Origin: an uncultured Gammaproteobacteria bacterium
GTDB taxonomy: Bacteria > Patescibacteriota > Patescibacteriia > XYB2-FULL-38-15
Assembly: GCA_965231095.1 (NCBI GenBank)
Contig: OZ246416.1
Location: 50,938-114,937, forward strand
DNA: 64,000 nucleotides
Direction of reading: 5' to 3'
In this document: positions 908 through 61,567 of the stretch, one piece after another
Layout: every line of letters begins with the position of its first letter
How positions within the stretch are numbered: position 1 is the first letter of the stretch
Notes under the pieces: generated by a model
Seen by the model: only the letters and a program-made list of their open reading frames with translations
What the model was told of the DNA's origin: nothing
The model's database searches: none
Program-made: the position numbers and the translations under genes

Positions 908-2956
908 ATGGTTACCCGAGAAACACCGATAGAAAATCTTCTGCGGGTTGGAAAAGCAACGTCAAAAAAATTACAAAATTTAGGTCTCCGAACTGCCGAA
1001 GACCTTCTTTTTTATTTTCCCTTTAGATACGAAGATTGGAGTAAAATTTTGCCAATCGGCCAGATGACTTATGGATCAGTCGGAACTTGCCGCGGGCGAG
1101 TGGAATTGATTAAAAATACAAGAAGTTTTCATAGAAGAAAAAATATTACTGAAGCGTTAATTTCCGATAATTCCGGATCCATTAAGGCGGTATGGTTTAA
1201 TCAGCCGTTTTTGGTAAAAATTTTAAAAGTCGGCGATGAAATATTTTTATCGGGTAAGGTTGATTTTGACCGGTATGGCATACACCTTACATCTCCGTCT
1301 TATGAAAAAATCGGAGAGGAAGCGGAGACAACTCATACGGCGAGAATTGTTCCGGTTTACCGCACGACGGAGAATTTAACCAACAAACAAATAAGATTTT
1401 TAGTTAAGTTGGCCGCGCCATTGGCTCTGAAAATTTCCGAGTGGTTACCCCCGGGAATTAAAAAAGAGTTTGGTTTAATTGATTTAAATAAGGCCTTGGG
1501 GCAAATTCACTTTCCGGGGAATATTAATTTGCTTAAGGCGGCGCGCCATCGTTTGAAATTTGATGAATTATTTTTAGTTCAGCTGCGGAATTTATTGTTA
1601 AAAAATAATTTACAAAAAAGCGTCGCGCCCAAAATTATTTTCCGCGAAGAGGAAACAAAAAAATTTACCGCCGCGCTCCCTTTTAAATTAACCGACGGTC
1701 AGCGCCAGGCGGCTTGGGAAATTTTAAAGGATTTGGGGGCGGGCGTGCCAACAAATAGGCTCCTCGAGGGAGATGTCGGCTCGGGCAAAACAATTGTGGC
1801 GGCGATCGCGATTTTGAATATTTTTTTAAATGGCTACAAAACAATTTTAATGGCTCCGACAGAAATTTTGGCGCATCAACATTATGACACGTTTTGTAGG
1901 TTATTTCATAGCCTGGACGTGAAAGTTGGATTGGTCACGCGCAGCGAAAAAAAGATGAATGGAGAAAAAGATAAAAATGCGGAATTTGTTATTAGTAATT
2001 CAGATTTAGTTATCGGCACGCACGCCTTGATTCAAGATGGAATTATTTTTGATAAATTAGGGATGGCGATTGTTGACGAGCAACATCGTTTCGGCGTGAA
2101 ACAGCGGCAAGCCCTGAAAGGCAATAGGGAAAATCCGCATTTTCTTTCCATGACCGCGACGCCGATTCCGCGGACAATGTCTTTGGCTTTTTATGGCGAT
2201 TTAGACATTTCCGTCATAAAAGAATTACCAATCGGACGAAAGAAAATTTTGACTAAAGTTGTGCCGCCGGAAAAAAGAGACGCGGCTTATGAATTTGTAA
2301 AAAAGGAAATAAAGGACGGCCGGCAAGTTTTTGTGATTTGTCCGTTGATTGATCAATCAGACAAGCTCGGCGTTAAGTCGGCGAAAGAGGAATATAAAAA
2401 ATTAAGCCAAGAAATTTTTCCCGAATTAAAAATCGGACTTTTGCATGGAAAAATGAAATCGGAAGAAAAGGAAAAGGTGATGGGGGAGTTTTTGGAAAAT
2501 AAAATAAATATTTTAGTTTCTACTTCTGTTGTAGAAGTCGGCGTTGACGTGCCCAACGCGACAGTCATGATAATTGAGGGTGCGGAGCGGTTTGGTTTGG
2601 CGCAGCTGCATCAGTTCCGGGGGAGAGTGGGGCGCTCTGATTTCCAATCGTATTGTTTTTTGTTTTCCGATAGCGACAGCGAGGAAGCGGCGAAAAGGTT
2701 GTTTGTGCTGACAACTTGTAACGACGGATTTGCATTGGCGGAAAAAGATTTGGAATTCCGCGGGCCGGGGGAAATTTGGGGAGTGCGGCAGTCGGGAATG
2801 CCAGACTTACAAATCGCGACCCTTGCGGATTATGCGATTATTAAAGAAGCAAAAACAGCAGCGGAAAATTTAATAAGAAAAGACCCGGAACTTTTATCGT
2901 GGCCGGATCTCAAGGAGAGGTTGGGTGATCTTGAGAAAAAAGTACACCTGGAATAG
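908..2956 (+). CDS. recG: ATP-dependent DNA helicase RecG
   Basis: 682 aa; wedge domain then SF2 helicase motifs GDVGSGKT, DEQHRFG, TATPIPRT, QLHQFRGRVGR. Confidence 0.9.
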   Translation: MVTRETPIENLLRVGKATSKKLQNLGLRTAEDLLFYFPFRYEDWSKILPIGQMTYGSVGTCRGRVELIKNTRSFHRRKNITEALISDNSGSIKAVWFNQPFLVKILKVGDEIFLSGKVDFDRYGIHLTSPSYEKIGEEAETTHTARIVPVYRTTENLTNKQIRFLVKLAAPLALKISEWLPPGIKKEFGLIDLNKALGQIHFPGNINLLKAARHRLKFDELFLVQLRNLLLKNNLQKSVAPKIIFREEETKKFTAALPFKLTDGQRQAAWEILKDLGAGVPTNRLLEGDVGSGKTIVAAIAILNIFLNGYKTILMAPTEILAHQHYDTFCRLFHSLDVKVGLVTRSEKKMNGEKDKNAEFVISNSDLVIGTHALIQDGIIFDKLGMAIVDEQHRFGVKQRQALKGNRENPHFLSMTATPIPRTMSLAFYGDLDISVIKELPIGRKKILTKVVPPEKRDAAYEFVKKEIKDGRQVFVICPLIDQSDKLGVKSAKEEYKKLSQEIFPELKIGLLHGKMKSEEKEKVMGEFLENKINILVSTSVVEVGVDVPNATVMIIEGAERFGLAQLHQFRGRVGRSDFQSYCFLFSDSDSEEAAKRLFVLTTCNDGFALAEKDLEFRGPGEIWGVRQSGMPDLQIATLADYAIIKEAKTAAENLIRKDPELLSWPDLKERLGDLEKKVHLE

Positions 2957-2968
2957 TGGGTCAGAACT

Positions 2969-3592
2969 TTATTTTTTTGATATGAATTTATTTCCCTTAA
3001 TATAAAACCTCCAGGGTTTATTTTTGTATCGGCCGGCGTAATCCACCCCGACTCTTTTCGCGGCAACAATTTCCGACGATTTTATTTTTACGCCGCGATC
3101 TTCAACCCATAAAATATCAGAGGTGAGGTCGGTGGTATTTAAAGATTTATCTATTTTTAACGCCTGACAAAGTTTGCCCGGGCCGTTTGTGAGACTTCGT
3201 TCATCTTTCGGCGCGTGGCGTTCGTGGCGCATTAAGTCAGCTCCCTCGGCTGGTTCTAACGCGCGGATTAAAATTGCCGCCGGATAATTTTCTTTTTCCG
3301 TGACAATATTAAAACAATAATTCAGGCCGTAAATTAAATAAATATAAGCGTGGCCTGGAGGGCCAAACATCGGCGCGGTGCGGGCGGTTTTTCCGCGGGA
3401 GGCATGGCTAGCCTTGTCGCTCGGTCCGACATAGGCTTCAGTTTCTACAATTTTTCCAGCAAGAATTTTTTTACCAATTTTTTTGACTAAAAATTTACCC
3501 AGGATCTCCTGGGCAACTTTCAATGTTTCTCTATTATAAAATTTTTTTTTAATTTTCTTCTTCATTTTTTTCTTCGGTATGGCGTATGTCAA
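2969..3592 (-). CDS. DNA-3-methyladenine glycosylase (Mpg/AAG family); true start probably internal (overlaps radA 3' end)
   Basis: Motifs ETEAYVGPSDKASHA, GPPGHAYIYLIYGLNYCFNIV, LTNGPGKLCQALKI characteristic of PF02245. Confidence 0.8.
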   Translation of the reverse strand: MTYAIPKKKMKKKIKKKFYNRETLKVAQEILGKFLVKKIGKKILAGKIVETEAYVGPSDKASHASRGKTARTAPMFGPPGHAYIYLIYGLNYCFNIVTEKENYPAAILIRALEPAEGADLMRHERHAPKDERSLTNGPGKLCQALKIDKSLNTTDLTSDILWVEDRGVKIKSSEIVAAKRVGVDYAGRYKNKPWRFYIKGNKFISKK

Positions 3593-20413: not shown

Positions 20414-20517
20414 TTTTGTTAGTGGAGTTTTACTAAAACCCCATTTTCGTGTATAATTGAATAATGTGTTTTGTTAATATTAGCTCCAAGCGGGGCTGTA
20501 ATATATTTTTTAAAAAT

Positions 20518-21969
20518 ATGAAAAAACTCATCGCGAAAAAAGTATTTTTTGGGGTGGCGATTTTTGTTGTCACCTTTTTGCCATTTGGCCTCGGCGCCCA
20601 ATCTTTAGAATACGATTTGGGCATAAGCGCGGGTGATATTTTCTTTTCAGAGGCAACTTTAATCGCGGGCAAGCCAATGAGGCTTTATGCCTCCATAAGA
20701 AATTATGGCACGAGAGATGTTTCGGGTTATGCCACTTTTTATTCGGGTCCAACCATTATTGGTTCATCGCAAGTCGTTTCAGTGCGCGCCGGCGGTTATA
20801 GCGACGAAGTTTTTGTTGACTGGACCATTCCCGAAGGAAGTTTCAATGTGAAAGTTGATATAAATGGCCAATTGCCTCAAGATCAAAATCCATCCAACGA
20901 TTCGGCCCTGACTGGAATGTTTTTTCCGGAAAAAGATACCGATGGCGATGGAGTGATTGATAAAAATGACAATTGCCCCAGCATGGCGAATTCCAACCAA
21001 ACAGATACCGACGGCGATGGAATAGGAAATGTTTGCGATGCCGACGATGATAATGACGGATTGACTGATGTAAAAGAACAAGAAATCGGGACAGATCAAC
21101 TTGATTCAGATACTGACAATGACGGAGTTTTAGACGGCCAAGATAATTGCCCAAAAGTTTCCAACGCGAACCAAGCCGATAAAGACAAAGATGGCGCGGG
21201 TGATGCTTGCGATTCAGTTGATAATAGCGGTCCGCCGCCAAGTTCTGGCGGTGGCTCCTCCTCTCCGGTTGATACAGATGGAGACGGAGTGGCCGACGGC
21301 CGTGATAATTGTAAAACAGTGGCTAACGCTTCCCAGGCAGACAACGATAAAGACGGGATCGGAGATGTTTGCGATTCTGATGATGATAATGACGGAGTGA
21401 GCGACGTCGACGAAGGAAAAACCGGGACTGATCCAAAAAATTCAGATACTGATAATGATGGGACAAAAGACGGCGATGATGCCGCGCCATTGAATCAAGA
21501 TGAAAGTGGTGTCTTAGGCGAAGAGGGTGGAGAGGGTGAGGATGTTTTAGTAGGCGGAGGAACTCTCAGGGGCGACGATTTTTCCGGACAAACCACGGGA
21601 CTAGAAAATATATTTATTGATTCATCCCAACTAAGTTGGAATACTTTTATTTTTAAAGTCAGAGATAATTCCGGAATGGAAAATTTAAGTTATGACTGGG
21701 ATTTAGGGGATAATACGGCCGCCTCCGGAAGCGAAGCCCAGCATTCCTACGGAAAGTCGGGGACGTACCTTGTAATTTTAAGCATTAATGACGGAGCGGG
21801 CGTTGTGAAAAAAGTTCCGACCACCGTGCGAGTAAGTTTCTTGTCAGTAAAAAATCCATACCTCTCTTTCCCGCTCGGAATTTTGTTTGGCTTGACAATT
21901 CTTTTCGGAACCAGAAAATGGTTAAAGAAGAAAAATGAATTGAACGAGATAGACGGAGAAATTAAATAG
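20518..21969 (+). CDS. secreted calcium-binding surface protein with thrombospondin type-3 repeats and a PKD-like domain, C-terminal TM anchor
   Basis: Signal peptide MKKLIAKKVFFGVAIFVVTFL; repeated DTDGDGVxDxxDNCPxxxNxxQxDxDxDGxGDxCD units; YDWDLGDNTAASGSEAQHSYGKSGTYLVILSINDGAG PKD signature; C-terminal hydrophobic helix. Confidence 0.7.
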   Translation: MKKLIAKKVFFGVAIFVVTFLPFGLGAQSLEYDLGISAGDIFFSEATLIAGKPMRLYASIRNYGTRDVSGYATFYSGPTIIGSSQVVSVRAGGYSDEVFVDWTIPEGSFNVKVDINGQLPQDQNPSNDSALTGMFFPEKDTDGDGVIDKNDNCPSMANSNQTDTDGDGIGNVCDADDDNDGLTDVKEQEIGTDQLDSDTDNDGVLDGQDNCPKVSNANQADKDKDGAGDACDSVDNSGPPPSSGGGSSSPVDTDGDGVADGRDNCKTVANASQADNDKDGIGDVCDSDDDNDGVSDVDEGKTGTDPKNSDTDNDGTKDGDDAAPLNQDESGVLGEEGGEGEDVLVGGGTLRGDDFSGQTTGLENIFIDSSQLSWNTFIFKVRDNSGMENLSYDWDLGDNTAASGSEAQHSYGKSGTYLVILSINDGAGVVKKVPTTVRVSFLSVKNPYLSFPLGILFGLTILFGTRKWLKKKNELNEIDGEIK

Positions 21970-26650: not shown

Positions 26651-27055
26651 TCACGAGGTTTCCTTGACCTCGTGTATTTTGTCCTCCTTGGTGGCGACAA
26701 ACGACTTTTCTTGTTCACCAGCCACAAAGACGATTTCTAGCGTTTTCCACTCCCCGAGGGGTTCTTCGCGGCCCGTTTTCGGGTCGCGGAACTCAATCCT
26801 CGCATAATGGATGTTCTCTTCGTTCGAAAAATGATGGAGCCCCTGACAGCGTCCTCCATCAAGAGTCCGCTCGCCGCCGTTCACAATGAAGCGGAAAATC
26901 ACGTGGCTGGTGATCCAGTGGTAATTCACATCACCGGTTGCAGCCAAGCGAAGGTAAAGGCAGCCGTTCATGTAGTCGAGGTCAAGCCTCGTGATTCGGT
27001 CCAAGAGTTGCCGATGGAGTCTGCCATCGGCGAAGATACTTTTTACTTCACCCAT
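26651..27055 (-). CDS. GC-rich island A: hypothetical 134-aa protein, no recognisable domain
   Basis: ~58% GC versus ~38% for flanks; strong SD aaaGGAGtacgATG; upstream TTGACA-N17-TAAGAT promoter (27101-27129, minus); hairpin overlapping stop. Confidence 0.55.
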   Translation of the reverse strand: MGEVKSIFADGRLHRQLLDRITRLDLDYMNGCLYLRLAATGDVNYHWITSHVIFRFIVNGGERTLDGGRCQGLHHFSNEENIHYARIEFRDPKTGREEPLGEWKTLEIVFVAGEQEKSFVATKEDKIHEVKETS

Positions 27056-27173: not shown

Positions 27174-28460
27174 ATGAAAAAATATTTTATTATTTCCTAC
27201 GGCTGCCAAATGAATAAGAGCGATTCCGAGCGAGTGGCGGCGGCGCTGGAAAAAATCGGTTATAAGCCCGCTCGGAGCGAAGCGCAGGCTGATTTGGTTG
27301 TGCTCGTAGCGTGCTCCGTGCGGCAGGCGGCGGTGGATCGGCTTTTTGGGAAAGCAAGAGAGTTGGCCAAACTTAAAACTCATAACTTAAAACTTAAAAC
27401 AGTTTTAACCGGTTGCGTTTTGCCGCAGGACAAGAAAAAATTTATAGGCAAATTTGATTTTATTTTAAATTTAGAAGATATCTCAAAATTAAAAAATCCA
27501 AAATCCAAGATACAAGATACTAAATACAAAATACTAAACACGGGCTATTTGCACCTTCAGCCGCGGCGTACGGAAAAATTTCGCGCTTACGTGCCGATTA
27601 TGACCGGCTGTAATAATTTTTGTTCATACTGCGCCGTGCCTTATGTCCGGGGAAGGGAAGCAAGCCGCCCAGCCGCCGAAGTCCTGGCCGAAATAAAAAA
27701 TTTAGCAAAAAATGGCTGCCTTGAGGTGACACTTCTTGGACAAAATGTAAATGCTTATCGGCCGAGTGACGTGAAAATTTTTTCCAAAAAAAATCCATAT
27801 AAGCATCCTTTTGCCGCGCTCTTATGGGAAGCAAATCAAACCCCGGGTATAGAGCGAATATTTTTTACCGCGCCGCATCCGCGCGATATGACGGACGATG
27901 TAATTCGCGCTCTGACTTTACCCAAAATGGTAAATTATTTGCATCTGCCGGTGCAGGCGGGCGATGATGAAGTTTTAAAACGGATGAATCGCCGTTATAC
28001 CGTGGCAGATTATTTAAAATTGGTGGCGAAAATAAAAAAGAAAAAACCGGGCATCGCGCTCGGCACGGATATTATTGTTGGATTTCCCGGCGAAACCAAA
28101 AAGGCGTTTCAAAATACTGTGGAACTTTATAAAAAAGCGGATTTTGATATCGCGTATCTGGCAATATACTCGCCACGGCAGGGGACAGCGGCAGCGAAAT
28201 TAGTTGATGATGTTCCGCGGCAAGAGAAAAAACGTCGGCGGGATATTTTGCAAAAGTTAATGGAGAAAATAGTTTTAGAAAAAAATCAAAAGTATGTCGG
28301 AAAGACAGTGTCAGTTTTGGTTGATAAATTTAAAAACGGCCAGTGTGTCGGTAATTCGCGGGAAATGAAAGTAGTACGATTTTCCGGAAAGAAAAATATG
28401 GTTGGGAAAATTTTTGAGGTTAAAGTTAAAAAAGCGTTGGAGTGGATTTTGGAAGGATAA
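27174..28460 (+). CDS. miaB: radical-SAM methylthiotransferase, MiaB/RimO family, with in-frame low-complexity insert
   Basis: MTTase N-domain YGCQMNKSDSE, radical SAM CNNFCSYC, C-terminal TRAM domain; tandem DNA repeats at 27375-27410 and 27490-27545 encode KLKTHNLKLKT and KSKIQDTKYKILNTG. Confidence 0.8.
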   Translation: MKKYFIISYGCQMNKSDSERVAAALEKIGYKPARSEAQADLVVLVACSVRQAAVDRLFGKARELAKLKTHNLKLKTVLTGCVLPQDKKKFIGKFDFILNLEDISKLKNPKSKIQDTKYKILNTGYLHLQPRRTEKFRAYVPIMTGCNNFCSYCAVPYVRGREASRPAAEVLAEIKNLAKNGCLEVTLLGQNVNAYRPSDVKIFSKKNPYKHPFAALLWEANQTPGIERIFFTAPHPRDMTDDVIRALTLPKMVNYLHLPVQAGDDEVLKRMNRRYTVADYLKLVAKIKKKKPGIALGTDIIVGFPGETKKAFQNTVELYKKADFDIAYLAIYSPRQGTAAAKLVDDVPRQEKKRRRDILQKLMEKIVLEKNQKYVGKTVSVLVDKFKNGQCVGNSREMKVVRFSGKKNMVGKIFEVKVKKALEWILEG

Positions 28461-28495
28461 AAAAAGGGCTCGCTTTGAGGTGGAGCCCGTACCAT
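28461..28495 (-). terminator. intrinsic terminator of island B operon (also downstream of miaB)
   Basis: Minus strand GGGCTCcacctcaaagcGAGCCCttttttt. Confidence 0.6.
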
Positions 28496-28505
28496 TTGCT
28501 GTCCG

Positions 28506-28754
28506 CTAGCCGATCCTTTGGACGACTTTGACATCGTGGATCTTCTGGACGTCGAACCAGTGAGTTGCTTCGCAGAGCGGTTTGTGGGGTTGATCGTACC
28601 CGCAGGGCAAGAGTTGGAAGATGTGACCATGGACCGTGATCACCTCGCCGATAAAAGCGTCCCATGGGTCGACCCACAATTGTTTTCCCTCTTTAGCCGT
28701 CTTCACAAAAGAGATCAACTTGCCGAGGTACCTTTCGGCCGATGCTTCAGCCAT
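28506..28754 (-). CDS. GC-rich island B gene 3: 83-aa soluble His/Cys-containing protein (hypothetical)
   Basis: MAEASAERYLGK...ITVHGHIFQLLPCGYDQPHKPLCEATHW; SD GAGGAGGAGG; start overlaps stop of upstream gene (gATGgcTGA). Confidence 0.55.
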   Translation of the reverse strand: MAEASAERYLGKLISFVKTAKEGKQLWVDPWDAFIGEVITVHGHIFQLLPCGYDQPHKPLCEATHWFDVQKIHDVKVVQRIG

Positions 28755-28980
28755 CGTCTTCCTCCTCCTCTTCTTCGCAGTTTTTCTTGCGGGCGCGGCG
28801 GAGAGATTCAGCCACGCAAATGACAAGGACGACGGTCATGCCGACAAGCACGGCGATCATGTAGGCCTTTCGCCAGAAGGTCAGTCCCTCGGCGGGAAGA
28901 ACCACAATGACGCCGATCACGCAGAGAATCGCGAGTAGGGCGAAGAACAGAGCGCGTAGCACGCTCCAGAGTTGTTTCAT
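28747..28980 (-). CDS. GC-rich island B gene 2: 77-aa two-TM membrane protein with poly-Glu/Asp C-terminal tail (holin-like topology)
   Basis: MKQLWSVLRALFFALLAILCVIGVIVVLPAEGLTFWRKAYMIAVLVGMTVVLVICVAESLRRARKKNCEEEEEEDDG; SD GGGGGGAG; ATGA start/stop overlap with gene 1. Confidence 0.55.
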   Translation of the reverse strand: MKQLWSVLRALFFALLAILCVIGVIVVLPAEGLTFWRKAYMIAVLVGMTVVLVICVAESLRRARKKNCEEEEEEDDG

Positions 28981-29210
28981 GGGCGTGACTCCCCCCAACG
29001 CCGCCGGGCGAAAAGCGATGCCACCGAGGTGCCGACAACCGAAAGAGCAATCCCGACGAAGCATCCAAGGATCACTTCCGTCTTCAGCTCTCCGAAGAGG
29101 TTGGTATGCGCCGCCAGGGGAATCGCCGCGGCCAGGGTGCATCCGATCAGGGCGAAGACGAGCAGACAACGGCCCGTCCTATCCTCACGTCGCGATTCTT
29201 CAAGAGTCAT
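28977..29210 (-). CDS. GC-rich island B gene 1: 77-aa two-TM membrane protein (holin/antiholin-like topology)
   Basis: MTLEESRREDRTGRCLLVFALIGCTLAAAIPLAAHTNLFGELKTEVILGCFVGIALSVVGTSVASLFARRRWGESRP; SD GGAGGAAG 2 nt before ATG. Confidence 0.55.
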   Translation of the reverse strand: MTLEESRREDRTGRCLLVFALIGCTLAAAIPLAAHTNLFGELKTEVILGCFVGIALSVVGTSVASLFARRRWGESRP

Positions 29211-29248
29211 GGCTTCCTCCTTTGCCACTTATAAGTTAATATAAAAAG

Positions 29249-30232
29249 ATGAAAGTGTCAAGAATTAAACCCCGCCTAAAGGCGGGACTCCGATCGGAGT
29301 ATAAATTGCCAAAACTAATTGTTATTTTAGGTCCGACGGCGTCGGGAAAGACGGGCTTGTCTTTGAAATTGGCAAAAAAATTTGGTGGAGAAATCGTGAA
29401 TGCCGACTCGCGGCAAGTTTATAAAAAAATGGATATTGGAACTGGAAAAGTTGAAAATAAAAAAGGAGTAAGGCATTATTTGTTGGACGTGGTCAATCCC
29501 GACGAAGAGTTTACTTTGGCAGGTTATAAAAAAAAAGCCGTGGCGGCGATTGACCATATTTTGAAACGTGGGAAAACCCCGTTTTTAGTCGGTGGCACTG
29601 GGTTATATATTCAAGCCATCGTGGACAACTTAACTATTCCCAGTGTTCCGCCGAATAAGAAACTTCGCACTGAATTCGAGCATGAACTGGCTAAAGCAAA
29701 AGAATTAGGAATTAAGAAGTATGAATTAAGAGTTTTGGAGAAGTGGTTTAAGAAATTATTAAAACTTGATCCTTGCGTAAAAGATGTAGTGGACGCTAAA
29801 AATCCGCGGAGAATAATTCGGGCGCTGGAAATTTGTCTTGCAACCGGCCGGCCGTTTTCAAAAATGCGGGGAAAGGGCGAGCCGTTGTTTCACGCGCTAC
29901 AACTTGGCATCACCATGCCGCGAGAAAAACTTTATAAAAATATTGATGATCGCGTAGACGAAATGATTAAAGACGGGTTAATAGAGGAGACAAAAAAATT
30001 ATTAAAAAAATATAATCCGAATATCCCATCAATGAGCGGGATTGGATATAAAGAAATAGGGGACTATCTGGGTGGAAGCTATGATTTAGATGAGGCGGCA
30101 GAGAAAATTAAATTTCGAACGCACGCGTACGCTCGGCGGCAGATGACGTGGTTCCGCCGTGGTAAAAGAATTAAGTGGATAAAAAATTATAAAGAAGCGG
30201 AACGAAAAATTGGTAAATGGCTAAATGGTTAA
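29249..30232 (+). CDS. miaA: tRNA dimethylallyltransferase; real start probably the SD-preceded TTG near 29309 (the first ~60 nt as tracked look like island B promoter/operator sequence)
   Basis: P-loop ILGPTASGKT, DSRQVYK motif; annotated N-terminal 20 aa are GC-rich and contain hairpins and the palindrome ACTCCGATCGGAGT. Confidence 0.8.
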   Translation: MKVSRIKPRLKAGLRSEYKLPKLIVILGPTASGKTGLSLKLAKKFGGEIVNADSRQVYKKMDIGTGKVENKKGVRHYLLDVVNPDEEFTLAGYKKKAVAAIDHILKRGKTPFLVGGTGLYIQAIVDNLTIPSVPPNKKLRTEFEHELAKAKELGIKKYELRVLEKWFKKLLKLDPCVKDVVDAKNPRRIIRALEICLATGRPFSKMRGKGEPLFHALQLGITMPREKLYKNIDDRVDEMIKDGLIEETKKLLKKYNPNIPSMSGIGYKEIGDYLGGSYDLDEAAEKIKFRTHAYARRQMTWFRRGKRIKWIKNYKEAERKIGKWLNG

Positions 30233-42717: not shown

Positions 42718-43632
42718 ATGGCGAAGTATGAAAAGCTGAACCTGGGTCAGATTGAAGCGCTCGTGAACATCTTGGGTGGCATGGAGGTCGTGAAGAAGAT
42801 TCTTCGCGGGACGAAGAAGCCTCTTCCCCCGGACAAAGGCTTTCGGTCCCTTTTTGACAACTACGGCCGCCGCGTTGCGCCTCCTACGATGAGCGACAAG
42901 GGAGGAGCCGATCCGGAGGTGTGTTTGGCTCAGCCGGCGATGCATCTTCCACCGGGACCGGGAACAAGGTTCAAGGGTTTGTGCGAACGCCTTGGCTGGC
43001 AGAACCAGATGACTCCGGAAGAATTTCGCGCGCGGGTGGACAAGGCGGTAGAGAAGATCAACTTCGGCAGCATCAGAGAAGAGGTGAGGGGAATTTTGGG
43101 TGGTGTGTATCTGCCCTTTGGTCTTCCGCAGGTGACCTCCAGCGATTGCGGGGAGATCCTTGACGAACTCGGCTTGATCAATGCGGTTGAGCGTGTTTTC
43201 AAGGAAAGATTTCCCGAGGGGCAGTTTTTCGGACAAGAAAAATCCCTGAAGGGAGGCTTCCGCTTGATCGAAGGAAGTCGCCACGAGCGATTTTTGGAGG
43301 CCTTGACAAAGGAGCCGGTCGTTGCCATCTACTTCCCATTGGCGCTCCAAGGGTATTTGCCCGATAAGGCCGTCGAGCAGATGGAGAGCCTGCCGGAAGA
43401 GTTTCTGCTTTCCGGTGTGGTTGATACAGCGGCGGCGATCATGATGTATCCGGAAGTTCTACTTCGGGACACCTGCGTGCCGCAGCTCGGATGTTCGGCA
43501 GTGAAGCGCTGGGTGACCGGAGTTTCCTCATTCGATGTCAGTGACGGCAGCGACAAGATCACGCTCGCCTTCGGGGGGTGCCAGATCTTTGGGCGCGGCA
43601 AGTTTACTTCCGGCCTCACCGTCATCGCGTAG
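42718..43632 (+). CDS. GC-rich island C: hypothetical 304-aa protein, no recognisable domain
   Basis: ~60% GC; SD GGAAGGAGA 6 nt before ATG; TTGACT promoter-like element at 42605; downstream terminator 43695-43728. Confidence 0.6.
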   Translation: MAKYEKLNLGQIEALVNILGGMEVVKKILRGTKKPLPPDKGFRSLFDNYGRRVAPPTMSDKGGADPEVCLAQPAMHLPPGPGTRFKGLCERLGWQNQMTPEEFRARVDKAVEKINFGSIREEVRGILGGVYLPFGLPQVTSSDCGEILDELGLINAVERVFKERFPEGQFFGQEKSLKGGFRLIEGSRHERFLEALTKEPVVAIYFPLALQGYLPDKAVEQMESLPEEFLLSGVVDTAAAIMMYPEVLLRDTCVPQLGCSAVKRWVTGVSSFDVSDGSDKITLAFGGCQIFGRGKFTSGLTVIA

Positions 43633-49706: not shown

Positions 49707-50297
49707 TTACGGGGAAGTGATGTCCTTCGTCCCGTCGTAGGGATCGCCGGAGTCGGCGGAATCGTCGGCGGGCGGCGCAGCGGGCGAGACGACCTCGACT
49801 TCCTCCTCGATGTCCTCGGCCACCACGACCGTGGTTTCCGGCGCGTCTTCGAGGATCTCGACCATCTTCATCGCCTGGCGCACACAGGCCGACAGCTCGG
49901 CGGTGGAGAAGGCGTAGGAGAGTTGTTCGAAGGTAACCCGGCGTCCTGGTTCCGTGTCCTTCGACATCCAGTGTTCGATCAGCTTGGCGAGATCATCGTC
50001 GGAGACGCGTTTCAGGATCTCCTCGATCGCGGATTTTGCGCCGTTCTCGATACCGCCGAGCATCGCCTGGCGCATGATGGGCACGGTGTCTTTCTTGTCA
50101 CCGGGCCAGATCCCGAGTAGATCGCCAACGATCTTCTCGAAGGTGTGCACTTGGGCAATGTGAGCCAGGCCGCTGGCCCGGCTCAAATTGATGTGGTGCA
50201 AGATGATCCAGATGTTCAGGACGCCGAGATCCACGAAGTGCTGGAGCATCGCCGCTAGCGTCAACTTCTTGTCTCTTTCCTTCTTGGATTCCGCCAT
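49707..50297 (-). CDS. GC-rich island D gene 2: hypothetical ~197-aa protein (helical, acidic C-terminal tail)
   Basis: MAESKKERDKKLTLAAMLQHFVDLGVLNIWIILHH...; ~62% GC; minus-strand promoter cTTGACAa-N17-TAAGGT at 50342-50370; 5' UTR palindrome CTCCGATTAATCGGAG. Confidence 0.55.
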   Translation of the reverse strand: MAESKKERDKKLTLAAMLQHFVDLGVLNIWIILHHINLSRASGLAHIAQVHTFEKIVGDLLGIWPGDKKDTVPIMRQAMLGGIENGAKSAIEEILKRVSDDDLAKLIEHWMSKDTEPGRRVTFEQLSYAFSTAELSACVRQAMKMVEILEDAPETTVVVAEDIEEEVEVVSPAAPPADDSADSGDPYDGTKDITSP

Positions 50298-50382
50298 TGT
50301 CTTCCACTCGCTCCGATTAATCGGAGTCCTTTCTATCCGCACCTTAGTTTAAAAAATAAAATTTGTCAAGATAAAAAAAGAG

Positions 50383-50445: not shown

Positions 50446-50608
50446 TGCCCAGCGGGTGCCGTGAGGCTGGCCGGCTGGGCTCAGTCGCGTGACCCGCCCG
50501 GGGGGTAGGAGGGCACCGGGGAGCCGACGCGAGCTTGGGGAACGGAGAGTTCTCGAGCGAACTCGCAAACTCTCACGTTATTGGTGGGTAAGTTACAGGC
50601 GGGTCTTG

Positions 50609-50881
50609 TCAGGGTCGGGGGCAGTTCCGGACGACATGCATTCGCTTGCGCCTGGCGCGGGCGACGCCGTCCGTGTACTTCTTGCCCTTGCGTTCGGCGA
50701 AAGTGTGCATCGAGCAGTAGTGCCCGGTATTCCCGCTACGGAGAATCGTTCCACAGTCGGGTTCCTGGCATCGCCGCGGCTTGCCATCGTCGGTGCTCCG
50801 ACCGCTGTCGTGCACGTCGCCGAGCGAATTGGCGCCGACCGTGCCGGTACCCTGATCCATTCCGAGCGCGCTCCAGTCCAT
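50609..50881 (-). CDS. GC-rich island D gene 1: 90-aa Cys/His-cluster (zinc-ribbon-like) protein, possibly nucleic-acid binding
   Basis: ...RRCQEPDCGTILRSGNTGHYCSMHTF...; SD GGAGGAGGAAGG before ATG; 5' UTR hairpin ccttgcgt..acgcaagg. Confidence 0.55.
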   Translation of the reverse strand: MDWSALGMDQGTGTVGANSLGDVHDSGRSTDDGKPRRCQEPDCGTILRSGNTGHYCSMHTFAERKGKKYTDGVARARRKRMHVVRNCPRP

Positions 50882-51004
50882 CCTTCCTCCTCCTCAACCT
50901 TCCCTATTATCAACTCGTCCTGTCCACCAGGCCGAGGCTTAGGGCCACCTTCCTTGCGTTTTGACGCGTGCCAATAACGCAAGGCCACCCTGTTTGTTGA
51001 TTTT

Positions 51005-60599: not shown

Positions 60600-60833
60600 A
60601 TGTGTTTTGGTGTCCCTTGTAAAATTGAAAAAGTAAATAAAAATAAAGCCACCATAAAAAATGGCGGCAAAGTTTTTGATATAGACACCTCGCTCTTGCC
60701 AAAAATAAAAAAAAATGATTGGATATTGGTGCAGGGCAATATTGGAATGAAGCAAATATCGGAGGATGAAGCAAAAAGTTGCCTTGCCGTTTTGGACGAA
60801 TTCCAAAGTAAAGAGGGGAAGGGAGGACTGTGA
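60600..60833 (+). CDS. hypC: [NiFe]-hydrogenase maturation chaperone HypC/HupF family
   Basis: N-terminal MCFGVPCKI (MCxxxP signature), ~77 aa. Confidence 0.75.
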   Translation: MCFGVPCKIEKVNKNKATIKNGGKVFDIDTSLLPKIKKNDWILVQGNIGMKQISEDEAKSCLAVLDEFQSKEGKGGL

Positions 60834-61567
60834 TGGAGAGAACATACGCAAGAGCGGCGCGCTACGCGCTCTATCCGAACATGCTCGGGCTTTGCGGGCC
60901 GCGCGGAAGGGGCAAGGAAAAACTCTACGAGTATTTGACTCTCAAGACCAAGGTGGACGACCAAGAGGCGAGGGAATTACTCGAGCAATTCACCGCGGCC
61001 ACGGCCTACATGAAACTGATTGCCGCGGCAAACGAGATTCCGGACTGGCTGGATCCGAGGGTGGTTGACGCCTACTGGATTGGAAACGACCTTTTGAACC
61101 TTGTCCGCGCCGAGGATCTGAAGGAATTGATCCATGGTCTCGTTCTAGCAGGAAAGCTTGCCGAGTCCGCGGCGGAAGAAGCGATTGCCCGTGTCCACCG
61201 CGATCATCGTCCGCACCATAGCTTCCATGTTTTTGTGATCGGCGGACTTTCCGGCCAAGTGGAGCGCGGGTCAATCGGCTGGGAACTTTGCCGTATCGGC
61301 TGGGGGACGGTCGCCCGCGTCAAGCATGACGGCAACCTCACAGTTTTGGCAGAGTCTTTGTTGCAAAAGGGCGGCAAGATTTTTCCTGAACTTGAGGGAG
61401 TGGAAAGAGAGCGGCTCATCAGGCGCGACCGGGAACTTTTCCCACGCGTTTCCTCTGGTGACCTCGTTGCTTTCCACTGGGGCAGAGTGGTTGAAATTAT
61501 TGACCACGACGCAGCACGGCGGCTGGACTATTGGACCGAACGGACGCTCCGGCACTGCAGACTGTAG
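60833..61567 (+). CDS. GC-rich island F: hypothetical 244-aa protein inserted in the hydrogenase cluster directly after hypC
   Basis: ~60% GC; SD AAGGGAGG; start overlaps hypC stop (gtgATGg); terminator 61593-61625 AGACTAGCttttaggGGCTAGTCttttttt. Confidence 0.55.
   Translation: MERTYARAARYALYPNMLGLCGPRGRGKEKLYEYLTLKTKVDDQEARELLEQFTAATAYMKLIAAANEIPDWLDPRVVDAYWIGNDLLNLVRAEDLKELIHGLVLAGKLAESAAEEAIARVHRDHRPHHSFHVFVIGGLSGQVERGSIGWELCRIGWGTVARVKHDGNLTVLAESLLQKGGKIFPELEGVERERLIRRDRELFPRVSSGDLVAFHWGRVVEIIDHDAARRLDYWTERTLRHCRL

Follow-up and report, generated by a model that had tools for sequence, protein, structure and literature searches.

A probable moron-like cassette of three coupled small-protein genes, antisense within miaB-miaA of a Falkowbacteria-like Patescibacterium

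What are three tiny, GC-rich minus-strand genes doing between miaB and miaA, neighbours that are both read from the plus strand? We address this question in a stretch of 64,000 nucleotides (nt) of the 886-kb contig OZ246416.1 (assembly GCA_965231095.1, positions 50,938 to 114,937 of the forward strand; hereafter the window), in which a unit of about 0.8 kb, g1-g2-g3, lies between the miaB stop codon and miaA, and whose MiaA relatives place the host as a Patescibacterium near Candidatus Falkowbacteria/Magasanikbacteria. We consider it probable, with moderate confidence, that the segment 28459-29261 is an autonomous, horizontally exchanged, moron-like accessory transcription unit set antisense in miaB-miaA, and that it is built from a conserved promoter, a strong leader, three translationally coupled genes and an intrinsic terminator, a judgement that covers architecture and evolution only. 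The cassette encodes three undescribed small-protein families of a narrow Patescibacteria clade, and our literature search found no description of the g1-g3 locus. In the tiny genomes of Patescibacteria, genes that are kept or repeatedly re-acquired are likely to matter for survival, and a promoter-to-terminator unit of ~0.8 kb with three such families of ~80 amino acids (aa) is a compact and experimentally tractable example. The features on which the argument draws are as follows (TM, transmembrane; GC3, GC content at third codon positions; ORF, open reading frame).

27174..28460, plus strand: miaB-type radical-SAM methylthiotransferase gene (Pfam UPF0004, Radical_SAM and TRAM), the upstream partner in the miaB-miaA pair
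28459..28493, minus strand: terminator module, in which GGTAC is followed by the hairpin GGGCTC..GAGCCC at 28488..28466 and by T7 at 28465..28459
28506..28754, minus strand: g3, an 82-aa soluble protein, predicted Sm/SH3-like small beta-barrel, whose start overlaps the g2 stop as ATGgcTGA
28747..28980, minus strand: g2, a 'beta'-type two-TM protein of 77 aa, whose tail reads RRARKK and then EEEEEEDDG; its ATG overlaps the g1 stop
28977..29210, minus strand: g1, a two-TM protein of 77 aa and of the (variable) 'alpha' type; its N-terminus is charged and its basic tail is RRRWGESRP; GC3 0.67
29211..29225, minus strand: leader or Shine-Dalgarno module GCAAAGGAGGAAGCC, immediately 5' of the g1 ATG
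29233..29261, minus strand: promoter module, with TTGACA (29261..29256) and either TATTAA (29241..29236) or TAACTT (29238..29233)
29262..29305, no strand assigned: insert of 45 nt, in frame, within the 5' end of the long miaA ORF, with a hairpin and a palindrome
29249..30232, plus strand: miaA, IPPT family (Pfam IPPT, E 7e-76), with candidate starts ATG 29249, GTG 29255 and TTG 29306

An earlier note, made from the letters of the window, had described 28461-29305 as holding three GC-rich minus-strand genes with overlapping starts and stops, and this is what we find: ATGA joins the stop of g1 to the start of g2, and the g2 stop and g3 start share 8 nt. Strong Shine-Dalgarno sequences (SDs) are likewise present, with AAGGAGG 5 nt ahead of the g1 ATG, GGGGAG 8 nt ahead of g2 and GAGGAGGAGGAA ahead of g3. 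Both g1 and g2 are exactly 77 aa long as described there, and g3, given there as 83 aa, has 82 aa plus a stop codon. The note's broader view, that these tiny-protein genes form a translationally coupled operon equipped with expression signals of its own, is supported.

Are these ORFs genes at all? GC-rich DNA gives long ORFs on either strand, here including several of 100-110 aa in antisense, and the three genes have a GC content of 0.55-0.60 against ~0.42 for the genome (0.53-0.62 where the comparison is with miaA, miaB and gatB, at 0.40-0.43), so that the three ORFs might be by-products of a GC-rich structural or regulatory DNA or RNA element. We find this hardly credible. The compositional signal is frame-specific (GC3 0.67-0.71 and GC2 0.34-0.54 in the called frames of g1-g3, with GC3 at 0.39-0.42 in miaA, miaB and gatB), and the ratio of nonsynonymous to synonymous divergence (dN/dS) lies below 1, at 0.25 for g2, 0.34 for g3 and 0.70 for g1 between the window and the related locus L002 (related loci carry L numbers throughout) and at 0.13-0.33 in other family pairs. 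Moreover, the overlaps of SDs, starts and stops are conserved, the 8-nt ATGnCTGA overlap of a beta-type gene with g3 recurring in the window, L002, L001, L087 and L090; the gene order recurs in about 10 independent contigs, and relatives of g3 align at the protein level with 43-71% identity. The RNA-element version in particular was rejected on the absence of any Rfam match over the island even at E<=1, the whole window yielding two tRNAs only. On this comparative evidence g2 and g3 are protein-coding beyond reasonable doubt, and g1 is probably coding and fast-evolving.

If the genes are real, are they expressed as a unit of their own? The earlier note had proposed a TTGACA-N16-TATTAA promoter; both hexamers are indeed present on the minus strand, but their spacing is 14 nt, not 16, and a second hexamer, TAACTT, stands at the canonical 17 nt from TTGACA. 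The promoter block TTGACAyTTy..TTTTTATATTAA is conserved in the window, L002, L005, L006, L085 and L090. The leader GCAAAGGAGGAAGCC is unique in the window (0.02 matches expected) and recurs ahead of the first gene in L002, L005, L006 and L001 and ahead of the second gene in L005 and L090, giving a family consensus of GGCAArGGAGGAAGCC and, written with its start codon, the strong leader GGCAAAGGAGGAAGCC-ATG. At the other end of the unit, the terminator GGTACGGGCyCCACC...GCGrGCCC with its T run, which overlaps the miaB stop codon on the opposite strand, is kept in all loci, and its stem carries a compensatory change from T-A to C-G between the window and L085/L090. The terminator scan did not flag this module, its loop exceeding the scan's 8-nt limit. 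Scans of IMG/VR with DNA patterns for the leader and the terminator gave chance matches only, in unrelated high-GC contigs.

The promoter and terminator modules are also repeated inside L085 and L090, where a terminator copy follows the first gene in each and meets a new promoter at the following junctions.

L085 1340..1425 and L090 475..570: internal terminator-promoter junctions, GGTACGGGCCCCACC..GCGGGCCC-T7-ATTC-TTGACATTCCCTATTTTTTATATTAA

Because both modules recur there at a distance from miaA, their conservation is not a by-product of the overlapping miaA start. These internal repeats are, in our view, the best available evidence that the modules are functional signals, and, judged by their sequence, the promoter and terminator of the unit are repeated cassette borders.

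How widespread is this arrangement? A word-indexed search with g3 of 5.8e9 cluster representatives returned three proteins, and word-indexed searches returned two for g2 and one for g1; an exhaustive HMMER profile search of 1.84e9 representatives gave three true matches together with two spurious repeat proteins. An alignment of three g3 sequences found nothing in GTDB genomes, JGI metagenomes or IMG/VR, and one of seven sequences found three JGI loci and no viral ones. Protein searches, MiaA-anchored loci and a second metagenome scan together yielded about eight distinct g3 sequences, the relatives being found only in the window genome, L001, L002, L005/L089, L006, L085, L086-88 and L090. All g3 loci with readable flanks lie between miaA and miaB in one narrow clade, and among the MiaA-anchored loci fetched (GTDB species representatives) g3 occurs only in two, in which MiaA is at least 69% identical to that of the window. 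The layouts, with P for the promoter block TTGACAyTTy...TTTTTATATTAA plus the leader GGCAArGGAGGAAGCC and T for the terminator module, are these.

Window and L002: P-alpha-beta-g3-T
L005: P-gamma-beta'-g3-T
L001: ...delta-epsilon-beta'-g3-T
L087: ...zeta-beta''-g3-T
L090: P-eta-T-P-beta'''-g3-T
L085: P-eta-T-P-g3-T
L006: P-theta-g3-T

As read from these sequences, the clade-restricted family layout is a promoter and leader, one to three unrelated small two-TM proteins, g3 and a terminator. The contig L001 (Logan SRR22387961; 994 bp, 55% GC) holds at least three two-TM genes and then a g3 that is 71% identical to that of the window; beyond its terminator stands a second hairpin, CCCCTCCCCTTAAGGTAAGGGGAGG, unlike the miaB end, and this cassette may lie in another context or represent a donor.

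Did the unit arrive in an existing gene pair? In 15 other Patescibacteria loci miaB and miaA stand on the same strand at a spacing of 8-102 nt, and we therefore take the cassette to be an antisense insertion into a once-contiguous miaB-miaA pair; the gap now measures 848 nt in the window, 1014 nt in L005 and 592 nt in L006. The junction also holds unrelated inserts, each of a single gene, in two more distant Patescibacteria, as listed here.

L022, 3259..3903, antisense: 214-aa gene between miaB and miaA
L031, 3540..3932, same strand: 130-aa gene between miaB and miaA

Given these inserts, the junction appears to be a recurrent landing place. No flanking direct or inverted repeats or target-site duplications were convincing at the cassette, and a Pfam scan of the large neighbouring ORFs (at about 20.5-37.2 kb of the window, within ~15 kb of the cassette) found no integrase, endolysin, phage gene or transposase. 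These ORFs are mostly housekeeping genes: threonyl-tRNA synthetase (ThrRS), PP2C phosphatase, MiaB, MiaA, GatB, thymidylate kinase (Tmk), DHFR, ThyA and dCTP/dCMP deaminases.

Since its arrival, has the unit been inherited with its host or exchanged? One account would be that the genes pass vertically, as housekeeping genes specific to the lineage and with a membrane-linked function, and that local peculiarities of mutation or selection made them GC-rich and mosaic; the identical position in every clade genome examined and the purifying selection on g2 and g3 fit such a view. We nevertheless regard it as improbable. Between the window and L002, synonymous divergence (dS) is 0.71 in miaB (with nonsynonymous divergence, dN, of 0.07) but 0.14 in g2, the DNA of which is 93-98% identical, and between L085 and L090 it is 0.13 in the eta gene and 1.13 in miaB; in two independent pairs the cassette dS is thus five- to nine-fold below that of the adjacent miaB. 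In g3 the pattern is split: between the window and L002 its centre (residues 18-66) has a dS of ~2, a divergence above that of miaB, with 39% of the amino acids identical, whereas its ends are 92-97% identical in DNA. Identity matrices for segments of g3 are mutually incongruent; the centre of the window copy is closest to that of L001, the C-terminal third is identical in L090 and L006, and L085 and L006 share 94% identity in their centres. Because dS is extreme as well as dN, we read g3 as a recombination mosaic and not just as a product of positive selection. Hypervariation of the g3 centre by a diversity-generating retroelement was also considered and was dropped in view of the very high dS and the incongruent segment trees, no search for a template repeat or reverse transcriptase having been made. 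In addition, gene content differs among close relatives, the present small sample already points to incongruence between cassette and core genes, and the GC3 of 0.67-0.71 stands in a genome of GC3 0.40 and is shared with several orphan islands in the window.

The divergence data hence argue that cassette segments move between lineages and that some alleles are younger than the host genes around them. Homologous recombination may drive the exchange, acting on the promoter and terminator modules and on the miaA and miaB flanks, all of which are conserved. A GC3 of ~0.7, common to g1-g3 and several other orphan islands of the window, suggests a shared GC-rich pool of accessory genes. The locus shows accessory genes wedged into an operon and exchanged between lineages.

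The border of the cassette has consequences for annotation, the miaA start in this clade being entangled with the divergent promoter and with an inserted hairpin. The earlier view of the start of the annotated miaA ORF, GC-rich and structured, as DNA foreign to that gene is borne out: the hairpin CCCGCC-TTTA-GGCGGG at 29271-29286 and the palindrome ACTCCGATCGGAGT at 29287-29300, which occurs once in the window (0.07 matches expected), are both present, and their joint fold is significant, with an energy of -18.5 to -19.3 kcal/mol (z -2.9 to -3.8). The insert is missing from L002, L006, L085 and L090 and has a 33-nt version in L005; both inserts are in frame and free of stops, encode ...SRIKPRLKAGL... 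and hold the hairpin. In the four loci without it, miaA starts as ATG-TCA-ACG (MSTLPKLIV...), and the ATG overlaps the -35 box of the cassette on the other strand. The order of elements in the insert, hairpin-T-rich-ATTC-TTGACATTC (also hairpin-T-rich-ATTC-TTGACA), equals the internal terminator-promoter junction in L085/L090, and by this likeness the insert resembles a border module of the cassettes that came to lie within the 5' end of miaA.

Where, then, does MiaA begin? The start proposed by the earlier note, a TTG near 29309, corresponds to the TTG at 29306-29308, and this start is plausible but not established. The gene caller chose it (308 aa), a GGAG created by the window's extra 12 nt stands 6 nt upstream (GGAG-N6-TTG), and relatives have 8-16 residues ahead of the P-loop, L002, L006, L085 and L090 being without the extension, whose retention in MiaA orthologs the note had held to speak against this start. 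Against the TTG, one ortholog does retain it, L005 having no alternative start between insert and P-loop, so that it must translate MRMSRIKPRLKAGL; moreover, the GGAG is sequestered in the palindrome stem, and the TTG is the conserved internal Leu codon of the relatives' LPK motif. Both the extended start and TTG 29306 are possible. Since a promoter scan found no sigma-70-like site on the plus strand in 28300-29450 and the terminator has its T run on one side only, miaA is probably transcribed by read-through from miaB. Such read-through would run antisense across the cassette, and the convergent transcription could cause mutual interference.

What do the genes encode? A helical-hairpin topology, predicted in the earlier note for g1 and g2, agrees with our Kyte-Doolittle analysis, in which each has two hydrophobic segments of ~20 residues and g3 has none, and all upstream proteins of the family, alpha to theta, likewise have two hydrophobic segments. 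The contrast between a basic and a poly-Glu/Asp tail is also real (g1 ends in RRRWGESRP and g2 in RRARKKNCEEEEEEDDG). The two proteins had further been called paralogs, for which we find no support: BLASTP gives E=1.2, hhalign of their small families a probability of 2%, and a juxtamembrane RRxW motif is the only shared feature. Homologs of g1 occur only in L002/L096, at 60% identity and with a conserved loop, AHTNLFGEL.TEVILGCFVGI, and g2 is homologous to the gene preceding g3 in L005/L001 (BLASTP E 1e-12), L087 and L090. Beta-type proteins are mutually homologous, and the other upstream types, barring the recurrent RRxW, have no kinship to beta or to each other that BLASTP or hhalign could detect.

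The poly-Glu/Asp tail of g2 (28755..28775, minus strand; GAA GAA GAG GAG GAG GAA GAC GAT) doubles as the SD region of g3, and because the poly-Glu codons spell that SD, the acidic tail has, at least in part, a double coding role. Every beta-type gene that precedes g3 closes with an acidic run and the ATGnCTGA overlap, and a GGGAGGAA leader replaces the acidic-tail SD in L085, in which g3 has a promoter to itself, and in L006, in which another kind of gene comes before g3.

The soluble member of the unit, g3, has a predicted fold of a short N-terminal helix followed by a five-stranded, strongly bent beta-sheet, modelled at a mean predicted local distance difference test score (pLDDT) of 71.9 for the window protein and 84.1 with the relative P0004 as target, the topology being identical, and we predict from these models that it is an Sm/SH3-like small beta-barrel. 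Its sequence identity to known barrels of the Sm/LSm/Hfq-like and SH3-like kind (the EDC3 LSm domain, the Hfq-like MJ1435, GerQ, bL19 and YaeO) is 6-17%. Unlike the Sm/LSm/Hfq-like proteins, g3 lacks the Sm1 and Sm2 motifs and is coupled to membrane proteins; LSM and Hfq profiles give no match to it in Pfam or NCBIfam at E<=1, and a search of PDB profiles gave nothing below E 0.8. The earlier emphasis on g3 as a His/Cys protein is not supported: C51 and H57 alone are invariant among its cysteines and histidines, so that a metal site is not indicated.

How might these products act together? We picture a small inner-membrane assembly in which g1 and g2 would be helical hairpins, probably with both termini inside (N-in/C-in), and in which cytosolic g3, made in step and in stoichiometric amounts with g2 by way of the conserved ATGnCTGA overlap, would probably dock at the membrane on the charged juxtamembrane tail of g2, which is cytoplasmic and basic, then acidic. 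The variable upstream hairpin proteins might then diversify the specificity of the module. As our preferred though tentative functional reading, made by analogy, this assembly could be a protective membrane module that acts either in superinfection exclusion, against entry of phage DNA, or as immunity to a membrane-targeting attack, and the polymorphic, exchanged nature of the locus fits such a role. The model for the analogy is the phage moron, exemplified by gene 15 of HK97, whose product gp15 is a small inner-membrane protein that blocks superinfection (Cumby, Davidson & Maxwell, 2012; PMC3594210). Like a moron, the cassette is an independent unit with its own promoter and terminator, set between two adjacent genes, with a GC content that deviates from that of its neighbours, presence or absence among related genomes and small inner-membrane proteins as likely products. 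Unlike a moron, it sits in a bacterial chromosome among housekeeping genes and has no viral relatives in IMG/VR, which is why we call it moron-like and not a moron; it has three coupled genes in place of one, its proteins have no sequence similarity to moron products, and its promoter and terminator are conserved modules that recur as cassette borders. If the products do protect the membrane against phage entry or toxins, they would be among the first defence-like small-protein systems in the phylum.

A bolder extension, which we regard as rather doubtful, would make the miaB/miaA junction of this narrow clade an integrase-free cassette-exchange locus in which the promoter and terminator modules double as expression signals and recombination handles, and in which unrelated two-TM proteins are swapped rapidly around a constant, hitherto undescribed, membrane-associated Sm-like protein, forming a new type of variable envelope-defence or host-interaction system of ultra-small episymbiotic bacteria. 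Integron arrays and hypervariable genomic islets offer a parallel in their fixed chromosomal site, variable and exchanged small genes, repeated units and conserved borders. The parallel with integron arrays is incomplete: the scanned large ORFs include no integrase, a promoter and a terminator form the borders of the cassettes, and nothing like attC is apparent there, attC not having been specifically modelled.

Could the membrane proteins instead be harmful? Small two-TM proteins with charged tails, tightly coupled in translation to a small soluble protein, call to mind a membrane toxin with a protein partner in a toxin-antitoxin (TA), abortive-infection or addiction-like system, in which one or more of the two-TM proteins would depolarise the membrane unless controlled by g3, or g3 would be a toxin neutralised by the membrane proteins, and in which a penalty on its loss would keep the module at the site. 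Foreign composition, mosaic alleles and lateral exchange are typical of selfish and defence modules, and there is weak, sub-threshold likeness to Cpta_toxin (E 0.0028) and to a PADLOC '2TM effector' (E 0.0033). We think this unlikely on several grounds. The family matches all fall below curated thresholds and are explicable by hydrophobic composition; the membrane partners of g3 are non-homologous and number from one to three, which is hard to fit to a specific TA pair; g3 of L085 has its own promoter and no beta-type gene; and if the membrane genes encoded a toxin, driving them from a strong promoter of constitutive appearance and a strong SD would be dangerous. The closest known pair, CptA/CptB (YgfX/SdhE), resembles the cassette in that a small two-TM protein is encoded beside a soluble protein of ~80-90 aa, but g2 scores 18.2 bits against Cpta_toxin (PF07254) where the cut-off is 27.3, g3 has no SdhE match, and neither the gene order nor the variable number of membrane genes fits. 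As for an effector of the cyclic-oligonucleotide-based antiphage signalling system (CBASS) type, the 2TM match to PDLC00691 (E 0.0033) reaches 15.3 bits only, and no nucleotidyltransferase lies among the scanned neighbours.

The earlier note had drawn a different likeness, to a holin and antiholin pair timing lysis, in which paralogous g1 and g2 would permeabilise the membrane with g3 as an accessory. The two proteins do resemble class II (two-TM-domain) holins in size (77 aa), in their two TM segments, in their probable N-in/C-in topology and in their highly charged C-terminal tails, and g2 has a weak match to Phage_holin_3_6 (E 0.0033). That match, however, stands at 17.9 bits against a cut-off of 28.4, no PHROGs holin family was found and none of any kind reached threshold, and homology between g1 and g2 is not detectable. 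There is no dual-start motif either: g1 starts with MTLEES and g2 with MKQLWS, neither has a second in-frame Met, and the in-frame GTG upstream of g1 lacks an SD. No endolysin, prophage or integrase was found within ~15 kb, and there are no IMG/VR relatives; the chromosomal site is conserved across genomes in which MiaA is only 69-78% identical, and the constant member of the family is soluble g3 and not, as in class II holins, a membrane protein. We find no support for the holin role and consider such a pair most improbable.

We return to the favoured reading, an exchanged, moron-like accessory unit with a possible protective role, against which a number of points weigh. Family searches with g1, g2 and g3 gave only sub-threshold, composition-driven matches (Pfam, PHROGs, NCBIfam, PADLOC and sequence profiles of the PDB), and a BFVD fold search gave none at E<=0.001; because none of the three has a significant match in these libraries, the functional reading rests on analogy. 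The interaction of g2 with g3 is pure inference. No relative of the cassette was found in IMG/VR and the element lies outside any prophage, which weakens the analogy with morons and superinfection exclusion. The flanks of L001 do not look miaB-like, a possible exception to the rule that the unit is always at miaB/miaA, and the universality of g3 in the family is partly a matter of ascertainment, g3 having been the search handle. The promoter has a non-canonical spacing of 14 nt to TATTAA or else a weak TAACTT hexamer at 17 nt, and the sigma-70 scan made no call there. Finally, with a dN/dS of 0.70, the evolution of g1 is almost neutral.

Further GC-rich units occur elsewhere in the window.

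26651..27055, minus strand: Island A, a GC-rich orphan unit of 134 aa with GC3 0.63, its signals extending to ~27135 and ~26600
42718..43632, plus strand: GC-rich island
49707..50342, minus strand: GC-rich island
50593..50988, minus strand: GC-rich island
60830..61567, plus strand: GC-rich island

Island A lies between the PP2C phosphatase gene and miaB and has a TTGACA promoter-like site, a GTGGCAAAAGAAAGGAG leader and a terminator of a hairpin with a T8 run; it has no match in Pfam, PHROG, NCBIfam or PADLOC, and a homolog occupies the same place in Falkowbacteria locus L006 (1366..1770). Three of the four further islands are orphans without a Pfam match, and the fourth encodes a DUF6390 protein beside a HypC/HupF-like gene (60600..60833); GC3, measured for three of the four, is 0.66-0.80. 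In L006, a metagenome-assembled genome of Falkowbacteria, miaB is split into two overlapping ORFs (2135..2680 and 2671..3411), reflecting a frameshift or an assembly error. The window also encodes, at 20464..21969 (plus strand) and upstream of the ThrRS gene, a protein of 501 aa that carries thrombospondin type-3 and PKD repeats and is probably located at the cell surface.

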